Shown here one piece after another: positions 9,199 to 13,794 of a DNA stretch of 64,000 nt (its first letter is position 1; every line of letters begins with the position of its first letter). The position numbers and the translations under genes were made by a program. The DNA is from Escherichia phage BAU.Micro_ELP-22, in the sequence record OR699282.2. The stretch is one strand, 5' to 3'. Below the pieces are notes generated by a model, which had not been told where the DNA came from, did no database searches, and saw nothing but the letters and a program-made list of their open reading frames with translations.

Positions 9199-9753
9199 AT
9201 GAAATCTAAACCACAAATAGACGAAGCACTGGGATTACCTAGTGCTCAACAATGGATTGAAATGACTGGTCAAGAACCAGAAGAAGATACAGAAATGGAT
9301 TTGTATCAGGATGAAGACAAAACTGAAACTGAAATATCATTGGAAGATGCAAAGATTGCAATGGAAAAGCTCAAAGCAATGCGTGTACAGTTGAGGGAAT
9401 TACCTGATATTACTGCAAGAAAAACCCAATTGGATCGTTTAGCACAAATGGCAGAACGAAAGTTTGAGGATATTTTTGATAGAGCATTTAATTGTGAAGA
9501 TCGTTTTGCAGCAGAGATGATTAATGCTGCAAACTCTATGCTAAAAATAGCTCTTGATGCTCATGCAAAAATAATTGATTCAGATGTTAAATTAGTTGAT
9601 CTCCAACTTAAAAAAGACAAAATGGAAATTGAACTAAATTTGAAACCAAAAAAAGAACTTGAGTCTGTTGGTGACCCAGATGCAATTGAAGGGCAAACCG
9701 TAGTTCACAAAACCCGCAATGAAATGCTTGCATCAATGAACAGAAATAAATAA
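9199..9753 (+). CDS. hypothetical acidic, probably coiled-coil protein
   Basis: Charged, helix-favouring composition. Confidence 0.4.
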
Positions 9754-9780
9754 CTTAAACGACCTTATGGAGTTATTAAA

Positions 9781-10317
9781 ATGAATAGATTACAACAAAT
9801 CCTAACTGAAAAGAAACCAGTTTATGAATACCGAGTTAAGTTTGCAGTTGAACCAACACCTGAACAACTTAGTAAAGTAACACAGCGACTAATGGATCGC
9901 TATGATGCGTTTGAAATTGGAGCACTAAAGAAAACAATTTTTATGGAAAAACCATTAGATTTCTATGAATTAGATTGTGGTGAAATTTGGATGTTTGACT
10001 TTAAATGTCATCGTGGCGTTCAATCAAATGTACTAATGTATGAAATTGGCAATTTACTAAGCATGACAGAAGCATTGATTCGTGTTCGTAGTAAAGATGA
10101 ACCTCGTCAAATTGAAATGACTGATTTGGAAGATGATATCGATTTTGATGATGTTGATGAACCAGTTATTGGAGTGGATTTTGGCAAACCAGAAGACAGT
10201 TATGACTTAGCTGGACAACAACGTGCAGACACTGCCGTTGATGATGCAATTGAAGCATCGAAAAAAGACAATAAATACTCTCAATATATGAGTGCTGGTT
10301 TTGGTAAAAAGGATTAA
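9781..10317 (+). CDS. hypothetical acidic protein
   Basis: ATG start; acidic DDIDFDDVDE stretch. Confidence 0.4.
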   Translation: MNRLQQILTEKKPVYEYRVKFAVEPTPEQLSKVTQRLMDRYDAFEIGALKKTIFMEKPLDFYELDCGEIWMFDFKCHRGVQSNVLMYEIGNLLSMTEALIRVRSKDEPRQIEMTDLEDDIDFDDVDEPVIGVDFGKPEDSYDLAGQQRADTAVDDAIEASKKDNKYSQYMSAGFGKKD

Positions 10318-10320
10318 CAC

Positions 10321-10863
10321 ATGAGTATACTTAATGAAATGTTAGATTATGAAGACAATGAGTTAAATGAAGCTCGTCCTTATAGTCGTTCACAAAGTGC
10401 AGTTGATAGTGCAAAAGGAAAAGTAAAAGGCTTTTTTGGTAGTGGACAGATTGAACAAGGTGCACAAGAAGTTGGTGCTGAAGCCAACCGCTTATGGGCA
10501 GAGTTTAAACGTTATGTTGGACGTAAATATGGTAAAGCTCAACCATCAGTACCTTACGCTGATGTGGCACAGTTTTTTAAAGGTAACAATCTTGATATTA
10601 AACATTTAGGGAACAATCCTCGTCGTTCTTTTACACCAAAAGATGTAGGTACTGCTCTATTAAATGCTGCTCGTGATATAATGAATGACTACCGTGACCA
10701 ACAAGGTGGCGAAGAAAGTTCAGAATCACAACCATCACAATCGACCTCAACTGAGCAACCAGCACAACAAGAACAACCAAAAGCACAAGGTTCCAGTATC
10801 CCTGATGCTCTACAAAAATTAAGTCCAGAGCAACGCGACCAACTGTTACGTATGCTTTCTTAA
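10321..10863 (+). CDS. hypothetical protein
   Basis: ATG 4 bp after previous stop; Q/E/S-rich tail ending ...QLLRMLS. Confidence 0.4.
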   Translation: MSILNEMLDYEDNELNEARPYSRSQSAVDSAKGKVKGFFGSGQIEQGAQEVGAEANRLWAEFKRYVGRKYGKAQPSVPYADVAQFFKGNNLDIKHLGNNPRRSFTPKDVGTALLNAARDIMNDYRDQQGGEESSESQPSQSTSTEQPAQQEQPKAQGSSIPDALQKLSPEQRDQLLRMLS

Positions 10864-10876
10864 GGAGAATCAACAC

Positions 10877-12394
10877 ATGGATAATTTTTTCAGTACTGAA
10901 ACTACCACAGTTCCTAATGGATATGTATATACGTCACATACTGGTGCAAAATATGTATTTCTTGAAGGATTCTGGTTCAATGACAATAATATGTTAATGG
11001 TAGACCCTAGAAAATACCCATCCATGTACGCAAGTGCTCGACAACAGATTGTCGAGCACAATCTAGCTTCAAATGAATATAAGATTGGTAACAAATATAT
11101 TGTTGAAGGTAAAGAGTGTACATTTATTGGTGAAAACCGTTTCAATTCAAAAGATGGAATTCTATTAACTGAAAGTGAATTCATCACTGAATTAATGGCA
11201 GATGATCATCGAGTATATAATGTTTCTAAAGAAACACTACAAAAAGAATGGAATGCATTAAAATTTTACATTCTTCCACCATATGCTGATGATATATCAA
11301 TTCCAGCAGGTATGGAAGTAAGTGGTTTTAAATTTGTTCCAAAGAATCACCGTTTTGTTGATATGAAATCAGGCCGAGCAGTTGATCCAGCAATGACCCG
11401 TAAACTATCAGATGAAGGTATGCGTATTGCTCGTCAGTTAGCTTCTAAAAATAAACTAATTCCAATCAAATCAACCTTAGTACAAGGCAATACACGTTGT
11501 GAGTGGAATGGTAAAGAATTTTGTGATAATGATGGTAATGTAGTAATTCCAGAACAAAATGCACATGCAATTATTAATGCATATCAGCAATTTGTTAAGA
11601 ATAACCCAAGTGATTTTCCAACATTAACTGGTGAACAAGAACATAGTGAGCAACGTTTTGGTTCAGGTGAAAAGCCACAACAAGCTTCACAACCTGCTAA
11701 ACAGCCAGTATTTGCAACTAAAGAATCAATTAATGAAGCAGATGAAGAAATTGAAGAATTTGAAAGCATTACTGTTCCTGACGGTTATAGAATGACTTCT
11801 TCTAAAGGAAAAACATACGCTAAGAAAAATAACTTGTGGTATGATATCGAAAGTAAAAAGCAACTTAACACAAGTGCTTCTAAAAGTGTTGAACGAGCAG
11901 CACAGCGTGATATTTTCCGTCATAACAATTCCGGTGCTATGAAAATCGGTACAAAAGTTAAATCCAAACAAGGCAAAGAATATTCGTATGTTGGTGGTGA
12001 CAGATTCATTAGTGCTGATGGTAAGTTTATACCAAAAGCAACTGCTGCTAAATTACTTGCCAAATATGAACAAGATAAAGAAGTTAAAAGTGATGAAACA
12101 CCTGAAGTAGACTCTGGTACTGAGCAAATTCAATCAAAAGAAGAACCTAAGAAAGAACCAGAATCTGAACAAAAACCAGACGAAGTTTCTGAACCAGAAA
12201 CTAAATCTGAAACAATTGCTGGTGATGATGTACAATCATTAGCTTCTAAAATTAAAGAGTCACCTTATGCTAAAAAAATCACAGTACTACTAACTCGTGG
12301 TGATGAGGTTTCTCTACTTGCTGCTGACATTTTACTTTCAGGTAAAAAGGATGAAACAGTGCAAATTTTAAAATCATTAAATAATAATGATTGA
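10877..12394 (+). CDS. hypothetical protein with two tandem homologous domains
   Basis: TVPNGYVYTSHTGAKY... and TVPDGYRMTSSKGKTY... open two ~80-aa repeats; AAGGAG SD. Confidence 0.45.
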   Translation: MDNFFSTETTTVPNGYVYTSHTGAKYVFLEGFWFNDNNMLMVDPRKYPSMYASARQQIVEHNLASNEYKIGNKYIVEGKECTFIGENRFNSKDGILLTESEFITELMADDHRVYNVSKETLQKEWNALKFYILPPYADDISIPAGMEVSGFKFVPKNHRFVDMKSGRAVDPAMTRKLSDEGMRIARQLASKNKLIPIKSTLVQGNTRCEWNGKEFCDNDGNVVIPEQNAHAIINAYQQFVKNNPSDFPTLTGEQEHSEQRFGSGEKPQQASQPAKQPVFATKESINEADEEIEEFESITVPDGYRMTSSKGKTYAKKNNLWYDIESKKQLNTSASKSVERAAQRDIFRHNNSGAMKIGTKVKSKQGKEYSYVGGDRFISADGKFIPKATAAKLLAKYEQDKEVKSDETPEVDSGTEQIQSKEEPKKEPESEQKPDEVSEPETKSETIAGDDVQSLASKIKESPYAKKITVLLTRGDEVSLLAADILLSGKKDETVQILKSLNNND

Positions 12395-12416
12395 TAACTA
12401 AAAGGATTTATTTAAA

Positions 12417-13397
12417 ATGGCTAAAAAAATTAATGAAGCACAAGTTAAAATCGATATCGCAGGTTTAGAATCTGATGATTTGGAAACTCTATCACGTATG
12501 TTAGCTCTTGCTGGTCAAGCTGAACGTCAAGACCCAGTAGTTGCTGCTCCAGTACCATCTATGGGGTCTATGACTCCATCTCTTCCACCTATTGCTCCAC
12601 TAGATCTCGATTCTATTGGTGCTGAAGAAGAAATTGGTGGAATTGAAACTTCAGTTGAAGACCCACTAGCAGCGGCAGTTGATGATCTTTCCGCTGATGT
12701 TGGTGATTTTGGTGCTGACACAGATGAAGTTAGTATGGATGCTGAATTTTCAGAACCAGGTGTAGAAGGTGAAGAAGATTTTTCTCTTGACCTTAGTGGT
12801 CAACCTCAACTAGAATCAGTTGAAGAAGACGATGAGGAAGAAGAGGAAATTATTGAAGAAGAATTCGATTTTAGTCGTATGCTATCCCTTGCTGGTATTA
12901 ACGAAGAAGAAGACGAAGATTTTTCCGTAGAGGGTAATCCTGCTACCGATAAAGAAATGAAAGATACCCAATTTCTACCAGATCTAAGTATCTCTGAAGA
13001 TGAAGAACCATCTAACAGTACTGATTATGGTCCATATGAAACAGAAGCTGATGCCGTTCGTGATGGTCAACTAAAGACTAATGGTGTTGAAGGTGACCAT
13101 TTTGTTGTAATTGCAAAAGGCAATCAATTTTATTGGAGACGTGTTGTAGATGAAGATCTTGACAATCGTCCAGAACCTGAGTATTATGATAATGAAGGGA
13201 ACGAAAATCGTGTTCATAAATTTGAACCAAAATTCCCAGGCACTGCATTAGGAGATAACCCACTAAATGTTAATGAAAGTGAAGAAGATGATTCACCTGA
13301 AGGTAACATTGACTTGGAAGATGATTCTGATGAAGAAGTAGAAGATATTTTTGAAAGTCTCCAAGAAAAATACAAGAAATTTTTAGGAGACAAATAA
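12417..13397 (+). CDS. highly acidic low-complexity protein
   Basis: Long D/E runs (EEDDEEEEEIIEEEFDF); repeated SRMLxLAG motif. Confidence 0.45.
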   Translation: MAKKINEAQVKIDIAGLESDDLETLSRMLALAGQAERQDPVVAAPVPSMGSMTPSLPPIAPLDLDSIGAEEEIGGIETSVEDPLAAAVDDLSADVGDFGADTDEVSMDAEFSEPGVEGEEDFSLDLSGQPQLESVEEDDEEEEEIIEEEFDFSRMLSLAGINEEEDEDFSVEGNPATDKEMKDTQFLPDLSISEDEEPSNSTDYGPYETEADAVRDGQLKTNGVEGDHFVVIAKGNQFYWRRVVDEDLDNRPEPEYYDNEGNENRVHKFEPKFPGTALGDNPLNVNESEEDDSPEGNIDLEDDSDEEVEDIFESLQEKYKKFLGDK

Positions 13398-13398
13398 T

Positions 13399-13794
13399 AT
13401 GCAATATAATTATCGTGAACTAGTTGAAGCGTTAGACGAAATTACCGGAAGAGATGAAGACGAAAGTTTTTCAGTTGAAGTTGAATCCGATGTTGTAGCA
13501 GTTGATGTTCTTAAGGATATTACCAAATGTCTTATTGATATTGTTGATAAGATTAAATCTGGTGAAGACCAAAAAGAAATTGTAGATAAACTACAAAAAG
13601 CCTGTGACATTTTGTCTGACATTCGATATAATGATGAAAGTACTGAAGTTGCTGATGAAGAAGTGTTGGAAGCCATTGCAGGTTGTTTTGGAACTGAAGG
13701 TATGGGACCAACAATTGACAAAGAAGGCGTACAACACTATAATGAGCCTGGTGCACCATCTTATGCTGCACGTCAAGGTTTTGTTGGAGACTAA
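13399..13794 (+). CDS. hypothetical acidic protein
   Basis: ATG 2 bp after previous stop. Confidence 0.4.
   Translation: MQYNYRELVEALDEITGRDEDESFSVEVESDVVAVDVLKDITKCLIDIVDKIKSGEDQKEIVDKLQKACDILSDIRYNDESTEVADEEVLEAIAGCFGTEGMGPTIDKEGVQHYNEPGAPSYAARQGFVGD

Follow-up and report, generated by a model that had tools for sequence, protein, structure and literature searches.

A conserved block of minor virion proteins in an Asteriusvirus genome and its possible loading into the head by T4-type N-terminal leaders

The stretch of 64,000 nucleotides from Escherichia phage BAU.Micro_ELP-22 that we analysed (record OR699282.2; the whole stretch is called the window below) carries six consecutive open reading frames (ORFs) on the + strand, which span positions 9199-13794 exactly and each have a Shine-Dalgarno-like site. 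The published virion proteomics of related phages establishes that the products of ORF2-6 are conserved minor components of purified virions and that ORF1 encodes a non-virion partner. A sequence-only reading had placed a six-gene cluster at these coordinates and had supposed its products to be particle-associated; coordinates and ORFs are borne out, and the proteomics agrees for ORF2-6, while ORF1 is never found. We tentatively read ORF2-6, at a little under an even chance, as packaged and protease-processed proteins which may be internal, ejected or engaged in head completion; this reading leans on putative N-terminal leaders. The six ORFs are:

ORF1, 9199..9753, + strand: 184 aa, isoelectric point (pI) 4.77
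ORF2, 9781..10317, + strand: 178 aa, pI 4.58
ORF3, 10321..10863, + strand: 180 aa, pI 5.33, net charge -3
ORF4, 10877..12394, + strand: 505 aa, pI 5.52, net charge -10
ORF5, 12417..13397, + strand: 326 aa, pI 4.05, net charge -75 (-0.23 per residue)
ORF6, 13399..13794, + strand: 131 aa, pI 4.10, net charge -21

The source phage is an Asteriusvirus of the 121Q/PBECO4 type and belongs to the RaK2-like jumbo myoviruses, whose genomes are ~350 kb long. The 4596 bp of the cluster are identical over their full length by 99.8% to phages UB and PBECO4 and by 99.6% to 121Q, with the same genes, order and flanks, and a further 16 phage records match this 4.6-kb region at >=99% identity. The six ORFs correspond to 121Q gp556-gp561, labelled in GenBank as 'hypothetical protein' (gp556) and 'structural protein' (gp557-561); the orthologue blocks of ORF2-6 are 121Q gp557-561, phAPEC6 gp266-270, CBB_210-214, GAP32_204-208 and RaK2 gp047-051.

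Virion proteomics has been published for five relatives, namely RaK2, CBB, GAP32, phAPEC6 and JP4; the GAP32 data are flags in the CBB supplement, and the supplements for JP4, CBB and RaK2 are protein-level tables only. RaK2 virions contained gp047 (ORF2) with 4 peptides, gp048 (ORF3) with 3, gp049 (ORF4) with 7, gp050 (ORF5) with 1 and gp051 (ORF6) with 2 peptides and 18.7% coverage. CBB virions gave CBB_210 (ORF2) with 13 peptides and 60.5% coverage, CBB_213 (ORF5) with 5 peptides and CBB_214 (ORF6) with 1, and those of phAPEC6 gave gp270c (ORF2) with 4 peptides and 41% coverage, gp268c (ORF4) with 6 and gp267c (ORF5) with 1; ORF3 was not found in either, nor was ORF4 in CBB or ORF6 in phAPEC6. 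The orthologues of ORF2, ORF3 and ORF4 were found in GAP32 virions and those of ORF5 and ORF6 were not, and JP4 virions yielded the ORF2 orthologue JP4_291 (4 peptides, 21%) and none of ORF3-6. Of the block, ORF2 is therefore found most consistently in virions, being present in all five lists. The weak or single-peptide detection of ORF5 by mass spectrometry is due to a stretch of 117 residues (aa 38-153) without lysine or arginine. The ORF1 orthologue is in none of the five lists, and thus ORF1 probably assists assembly or is a component that becomes degraded.

The label-free intensities reported for JP4 allow a rough view of abundance: ORF2 reaches 1.9e7, compared with 6.6e8 for the major capsid protein (1620 copies), 1.2e8 for the sheath (150) and 1.9e6 for the portal (12). 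Scaling by these copy numbers, which come from the phAPEC6 study and make the estimate a crude one, gives some tens of copies of ORF2 in each virion, and therefore ORF2 is not a 1:1 capsid decoration protein. The cryo-EM studies of phAPEC6 and 121Q show an inner body, a vertex protein and decoration densities, all without an assigned protein. We found no published cryo-EM assignment of the cluster proteins in a search that covered phAPEC6, 121Q, phiKp24 and Asteriusvirus, and the literature search found no publication that gives any of them a location.

The idea that these proteins are loaded into the head comes from their N-termini. The gp21 protease of T4 cleaves at L/I-x-E, and the internal proteins of T4 reach the prohead via N-terminal propeptides of 10-19 residues, which end in L/I-x-E and are later removed (PMC9026906). 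The head module of 121Q has the order portal, gp599, gp600, T4 gp21-like protease (gp601), gp22-like scaffold (gp602) and gp23-like capsid protein (gp603). The gp602 scaffold has 24 [LI]xE sites in 371 aa (6.5 per 100 aa), and the site LTE/S at residue 43 of the capsid protein (a slash marks the putative cut) fits the reported processing from 42.2 to 37 kDa; these sites therefore indicate that the phage protease probably keeps the L/I-x-E specificity of T4. Putative cuts of the same kind can be placed near the N-termini of five cluster proteins and three products of the head module:

ORF1: MKSKPQIDE/A
ORF2: MNRLQQILTE/K
ORF3 (N-terminal part): ...NELNE/A
ORF5: MAKKINE/A
ORF6: MQYNYRELVE/A
Scaffold gp602: MSKLEKLLKE/S
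gp600: MANLKLLQE/A
Capsid protein gp603: MSQLLNE/S

An N-terminal [LI]xE[ASG] with the glutamate at residues 5-20 is present in 4/6 cluster ORFs, in 4/6 head-module genes and in 7/120 others (Fisher p=4.5e-4), and four of these seven background genes encode annotated structural proteins. The looser [LI]xE test is positive for 5/6 cluster ORFs versus 23/113 other genes (p=0.003). The leader of ORF5 is well conserved, with E7 and A8 kept in at least 90% of 99 homologues and LTE/A or LYE/A in distant relatives. The leader of ORF3, LNE or IDE directly before xP(Y/F)G, occurs in 10/11 isolates and both distant relatives, the exception being EJP2, where the annotated gene is 5'-truncated, so that all full-length N-termini carry it; ORF6 has [LI][VM]E/[AS] in 11/11 isolate orthologues. 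The sequence-only reading had proposed a shared targeting or cleavage signal, for which it took the RML motif treated below. Such a signal may indeed exist, but in the form of the N-terminal [LI]xE leader of the gp21/capsid-targeting sequence type and not of RML; as a capsid-targeting signal the leader pattern is suggestive.

The second feature on which our reading draws is the unusual character of ORF5 (121Q gp560). The AlphaFold2 model, built with an alignment of 99 sequences and having a mean predicted local distance difference test (pLDDT) score of 60, predicts that the protein is mostly disordered, with 130 residues at pLDDT <50. The ordered parts in the prediction are a helix at 19-36, a short helix at 152-158, a mini-domain and a C-terminal helix. 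As modelled, ORF5 is thus a polyanionic disordered chain in which four small elements are conserved, namely the two helices that bear RMxxLAG, the mini-domain of 40 residues and the helix near the C-terminus:

Motif copy 1, LSRMLALAGQAE, aa 25-36, 12489..12524, + strand: within the predicted helix 19-36
Motif copy 2, FSRMLSLAGINE, aa 152-163, 12870..12905, + strand: predicted short helix 152-158, with D/E runs on either side
Beta-alpha-beta-beta mini-domain, aa 203-242, 13023..13142, + strand: the one part with a confident fold, pLDDT 88-96
Conserved C-terminal helix, aa 308-323, VEDIFESLQEKYKKFL, 13338..13385, + strand: from conservation and the AlphaFold2 model

The sequence-only reading had noted a motif recurring in two proteins of the cluster. 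It is literally present, as SRMLALAG at aa 26-33 and SRMLSLAG at aa 153-160 of ORF5 and as LLRMLS in the last six residues of ORF3, and the six proteins together contain the tripeptide RML 3 times, where 0.07 occurrences would be expected. However, both full copies lie in ORF5, and the ending of ORF3 is not conserved, the orthologues having LLRLIS, LLKLIS, LLAMLG or LLSLLA. A six-frame scan of the window and 78 kb more of 121Q for R[MLI]xxL[ASC]G returned nothing beyond the two copies in ORF5. Therefore, as judged from these comparisons, RMxxLAG is an internal duplicated element of ORF5 and not a signature common to the cluster proteins, and the claim of a motif shared between proteins falls. 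Within ORF5 homologues the pattern is present in two copies in 72/99 and in one copy in 24/99, the consensus is Phi-x-R-M-x-x-L-A-G-Phi-x-E, and variants are recognisable even in ORF5 relatives of ~500 aa at only ~32% identity. In copy 1, L31, A32 and G33 are invariant and L29, Q34 and E36 are at least 90% conserved among the 99 homologues. A tblastn search with the N-terminal 40 residues of ORF5 against 50,697 phage records found the same 72 orthologue-bearing records, at one place each, and therefore the motif is not used by other phage groups or genes at this sensitivity. The two RMxxLAG helices of ORF5 are best read as docking sites for one partner.

The charge of the cluster is less uniform than had been supposed. 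All six proteins are hydrophilic, with grand average of hydropathy (GRAVY) values from -0.44 to -0.97, whereas the description 'strongly acidic' holds for two of them, ORF5 and ORF6. Ranked by acidity among the 43 proteins of the window, ORF5 and ORF6 are the top two, and ORF2 (4th) and ORF1 (6th) exceed the average mildly; 39 of the 43 are net negative and nearly all have a pI of 4.5-6, a setting in which ORF3 and ORF4 are ordinary, and ORF3 and a portion of ORF4 even turn basic in more distant relatives. The long D/E runs noticed in one protein are real and belong to ORF5: EEDDEEEEE at aa 136-144, EEEDED at 163, EDEE at 194 and EEDD at 289.

The [LI]xE leaders and the encoded gp21-like protease led us to propose prohead loading and trimming. 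ORF3, ORF5 and ORF6, and with less certainty ORF1 and ORF2, would at first carry a short leader at the N-terminus, with [LI]-x-E at its end and A, S or G behind it; this leader would have the format of the T4 capsid-targeting propeptide and be cut by the gp21-like prohead protease. The leader-bearing proteins would enter the prohead core, be trimmed there and stay in the head, where they would be internal, be ejected or take part in head completion; ORF1 would be broken down or driven out, and ORF5 would dock one partner through its two RMxxLAG helices. We prefer an internal-protein reading because of the leaders, the gp21-type protease, the polyanionic character and presumed disorder of ORF5 and ORF6 and the unassigned inner body; the heads of 121Q and phAPEC6 hold such an inner body, so there is room for such proteins. 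It could even be that ORF2-6 are the protein components of this inner body or of an ejected bolus, loaded by T4-style leaders, with ORF5 as a polyanionic disordered spacer docking twice via its RMxxLAG helices onto a core partner, but to this specific form we give a rather poor chance. If true, a phiKZ-like inner body would have been invented a second time, from proteins unrelated in sequence and within a head-assembly pathway of the T4 type. In any case the block of orphan virion proteins is a reasonable candidate set for the inner-body proteins of 121Q-type phages. If the leaders work as in T4, they would also provide a simple rule to predict packaged proteins in RaK2-like jumbo phages and could load foreign cargo, as with the T4 capsid-targeting sequence.

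Several points weigh against head loading. No link in sequence or fold to the T4 internal proteins, the phiKZ inner-body proteins or any characterised family was found. The leader motif is short and was defined post hoc, glutamate-rich proteins raise its chance frequency, and the looser form occurs in 20% of other genes. ORF4 has no leader, the ORF6 leader is not kept in two distant contigs, and the P1 residue of the ORF1 and ORF2 leaders drifts to D, S or N in relatives. A strongly polyanionic protein would be electrostatically awkward within a DNA-filled head. Additionally, the cassette lies among tail genes with no terminator-like site between it and the tube genes, and the 121Q head module is ~60 kb away.

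Comparison with known systems shows the same mixture. Like IPI, IPII, IPIII and Alt of T4, the cluster proteins are small, are present in mature virions and belong to a T4-related myovirus with a gp21-like protease, and their putative leaders are short (7-19 residues) and end in L/I-x-E before a small residue. Unlike them, they show no sequence homology in PHROG, Pfam or NCBIfam, they are acidic whereas the known T4 internal proteins are basic, their cleavage and their place inside the capsid are putative, and their genes lie in the tail/head-completion region and not near the head genes. ORF5 in particular resembles T4 gp67/gp68 and 121Q gp600, which are polyacidic, rich in D/E runs, virion- or prohead-associated and provided with an N-terminal [LI]xE leader. 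The 121Q gp600 gene (record L015, 12880-13728, outside the window) encodes a polyacidic virion protein of 282 aa with a net charge of -54 and D/E runs; the gene is flanked by those of the portal and the gp21-like protease, which is where T4 has gp67/gp68. ORF5 differs from gp600 in its genomic module, and the two are not homologous (hhalign probability 0.2%). With respect to phiKZ and SPN3US, the heads of 121Q-type phages show a phiKZ-like inner body by bubblegram imaging, and the cluster comprises orphan virion proteins that could contribute to it. However, there is no PHROG match to the inner-body or ejection proteins of phiKZ, and the phAPEC6 authors likewise report no similarity; the phiKZ protease motif is reportedly S/A/G-x-E, in a different protease family context.

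One would argue that the neighbourhood of these genes points to the tail instead, and the main rival explanation is that ORF2-6 are neck, connector, tail-completion or tail-lumen proteins, situated at the head-tail junction or in the tail. The order of sheath, three tube paralogues, gp4-like gene and ORF1-7 is kept even where ORF5 is only 32% identical and is thus a very old linkage, no terminator-like site was found within 6805-15838, the head genes are located elsewhere, and the JP4 signal of ORF2 is compatible with a ring-type stoichiometry. Nevertheless, ORF5, according to its model, and presumably ORF6 are largely disordered polyanions, which is unlike ordered neck or tail subunits, the protease-type N-terminal leaders are common to the cluster and the head-module genes, and T4 gp4 itself is classed as a head-completion and not a tail protein. 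We regard such a location as a serious but on the whole unlikely alternative. Much less can be said for the scaffold role that the sequence-only reading had raised, in which the cluster would form a prohead assembly core removed on maturation. The hydrophilic and acidic composition and the lack of ORF1 in virions are what one would expect of a scaffold. However, a dedicated gp22-like scaffold, gp602, already adjoins the protease and the major capsid protein in the head module, and the role is therefore filled; ORF2-6 persist in mature virions, and their [LI]xE sites (1-9 in each of the six ORFs, 0.6-2.2 per 100 aa) are near the compositional expectation, compared with 6.5 in gp602. A scaffold role is thus essentially excluded for ORF2-6 and very improbable for the cluster as such.

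The last alternative concerns ORF5 and ORF6 only, which may be packaged anti-defence polyanions or DNA mimics, injected with the DNA against restriction or other DNA-binding defences. Their extreme negative charge is conserved across relatives (-59 to -95 in all ORF5 orthologues, -9 to -33 in ORF6), and virion association would permit delivery at infection. Precedents are T4 internal protein I and the Dar proteins of P1, which are packaged anti-restriction proteins. The internal proteins of T4 are ejected into the host (PMC9026906). ORF5 and ORF6 have a very low pI in common with T7 Ocr, ArdA and T4 Arn, but they match neither these nor any other such family in Pfam, NCBIfam or PHROGs, and a Foldseek search with the ORF5 model found no structural match in the PDB (best E=1.8). 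ORF5 is predicted to be disordered save for ~90 residues and not to be a rigid DNA-shaped protein, whereas the known DNA mimics are compact folded proteins with patterned surface carboxylates. Ocr and Arn are made after infection and are not known to be packaged, unlike ORF5 and ORF6, which belong to the virion and have their genes in a structural neighbourhood. Genes kept so strictly, and in the same order, in phages of different hosts are also more typically concerned with core morphogenesis than with anti-defence, where evolution is fast. It is therefore improbable that ORF5 and ORF6 have a packaged anti-defence role, which is without positive support, and the DNA-mimic proposal of the sequence-only reading is not upheld.

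Head loading thus stays our preferred explanation for ORF2-6, but the novelty of these findings has to be delimited. That these genes exist, are conserved and encode virion-associated proteins can already be read in papers and in GenBank records, and the cluster itself is no discovery. Published work on 121Q-type phages gives no location or function for the proteins, nor does it mention the repeated motif of ORF5, the duplication within ORF4 or the leaders at the N-termini; these three, together with a mis-annotation of ORF3, seem to be undescribed, and they are modest. ORF5 is an unusually clean case of a virion protein that is conserved, polyanionic and, by prediction, disordered, and in which a short, probable docking motif is duplicated.

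The other proteins of the block can be characterised to a varying degree. Scans of Pfam, NCBIfam and PHROG with the six ORFs and their neighbours gave nothing but RaK2-like orphan families for the six, with end-to-end matches to PHROGs 14802, 16152, 16305, 15988, 14971 and, for ORF1, 16202 (E 3e-60 to 6e-236); the families matched by ORF2, ORF4, ORF5 and ORF6 (E<=3e-60) are named 'virion structural protein'. A sequence search of the PDB with ORF2, ORF4 and ORF5 returned nothing relevant. Sub-threshold matches of ORF6 to saposin and of ORF3 to sigma-70 were far under the curated cut-offs and were rejected. ORF1 (121Q gp556, phAPEC6 gp271, CBB_209, RaK2 gp046) is an acidic and hydrophilic protein with a conserved EALGLP N-terminus, and its family, phrog_16202, is of unknown function. 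The model of ORF2 (121Q gp557) has an N-terminal helix and a ferredoxin-like alpha/beta domain at aa 15-104 (pLDDT 83-89), followed by a disordered acidic linker at 112-128 and then C-terminal helices. ORF3 (121Q gp558) has the putative leader LNE/A(R)PY near residues 15-19, a low-complexity middle rich in Q, P and E and an amphipathic C-terminal segment that runs to LLRMLS. Its orthologues are labelled 'Hsp70 heat shock protein' in RefSeq and in PHROG 16152; with 180 aa and no HSP70 match in Pfam or NCBIfam the label does not fit, looks like a propagated annotation error and needs correction in the public records. ORF6 (121Q gp561) combines the N-terminus listed above with a conserved C-terminal SYxxxxGFVG.

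ORF4 (121Q gp559) consists of two copies of a ~95-aa domain, a lineage-specific insert of ~180 aa, a linker rich in K, E and P and a conserved C-terminal segment. In the alignment, RaK2/K64-1, 7t3 and Serratia phage BF lack the insert, and in the distant metagenomic relative L017 the ORF4 gene is split in two. The repeats, which BLASTP aligns with each other, are:

ORF4 repeat copy 1, aa 8-100, 10898..11176, + strand: E=3e-14 against copy 2, 32% identity over 94 aa
ORF4 repeat copy 2, aa 296-388, 11762..12040, + strand

The flanks of the cluster are as constant as the cluster itself. On its 5' side are a T4 gp13-like neck gene, a deoxynucleoside monophosphate (dNMP) kinase, the tail sheath, three tail-tube paralogues and a gp4-like gene; on its 3' side are the small conserved ORF7 and then a MoxR-type ATPase and a VWA protein. 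The immediate neighbours are:

T4 gp4-like 'head completion' protein with a TnsA-like nuclease fold, 8740..9168, + strand: directly 5' of ORF1, an adjacency kept in every relative examined
ORF7 (121Q gp562), 13798..14178, + strand: 126 aa; it completes the block as a conserved seventh gene, and its product is not acidic and has never been detected in virions

The order around the seven-gene cassette, from dNMP kinase through sheath, three tube paralogues, gp4-like gene and ORF1-7 to the MoxR ATPase, is the same across RaK2-like jumbo phages. The ORF5 orthologue is present in 72 phage records, and the 12 records that were examined all have the same cassette (12/12). Synteny is strict in the Asteriusvirus, Mimasvirus, Eneladusvirus and Alcyoneusvirus genomes, the hosts of phages with the cassette are Escherichia, Klebsiella, Erwinia, Vibrio and Xanthomonas, and two distant metagenomic contigs (ORF5 identity 32%) have the gene order from dNMP kinase to MoxR unchanged. 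The cluster genes have the conserved position of the RaK2-like virion protein families, flanked on one side by the gp4-like head-completion gene and on the other by the MoxR ATPase.

The right-hand boundary of the cassette may also be a boundary of transcription. Near-consensus sigma-70 promoters are dense at 13159-14323 on the + strand, where two sites are perfect (12/12) and four more reach 11/12; the perfect ones lie at 13715-13743, inside the 3' end of ORF6, and at 14296-14323, with an extended -10 TG, in the gap of 314 bp before the MoxR gene. This promoter cluster just before the MoxR gene therefore suggests, from sequence, that the transcription class changes at this boundary, and it suggests that the MoxR/VWA pair may be transcribed by unmodified host RNA polymerase, in a temporal class other than that of the structural cassette. 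The T4 late-promoter box TATAAATA is depleted in the whole window, with 2 sites against 10.4 expected from shuffles, and none is near the cluster; therefore it is of no use for timing the expression of the cluster. Its two sites are at 57077-57084 and 63116-63123 on the - strand, one of them 17-24 nt upstream of the - strand gene at 56572-57060.

Other genes of the window deserve a short mention. The MoxR-type AAA+ ATPase (14493-15818) and the VWA/DUF2201 protein (15893-17317) form a pair like gp24/gp25 of N4 that is always found 3' of the cassette; the ATPase was detected with 6 peptides in phAPEC6 virions and has no structural flag in 121Q or CBB. The three tail-tube-like paralogues lie in a row at 6076-6762 (228 aa), 6858-7634 (258 aa) and 7646-8740 (364 aa), and all were found in the virions of relatives; those of 258 and 364 aa match PHROG tail-tube families, and that of 228 aa is a tail tube protein according to the K64-1 and Turkey5 records. 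Finally, one ORF of 3333 aa (381 kDa) at 42547-52548 on the - strand adjoins a baseplate wedge gene, and its product was detected in phAPEC6 and JP4 virions.

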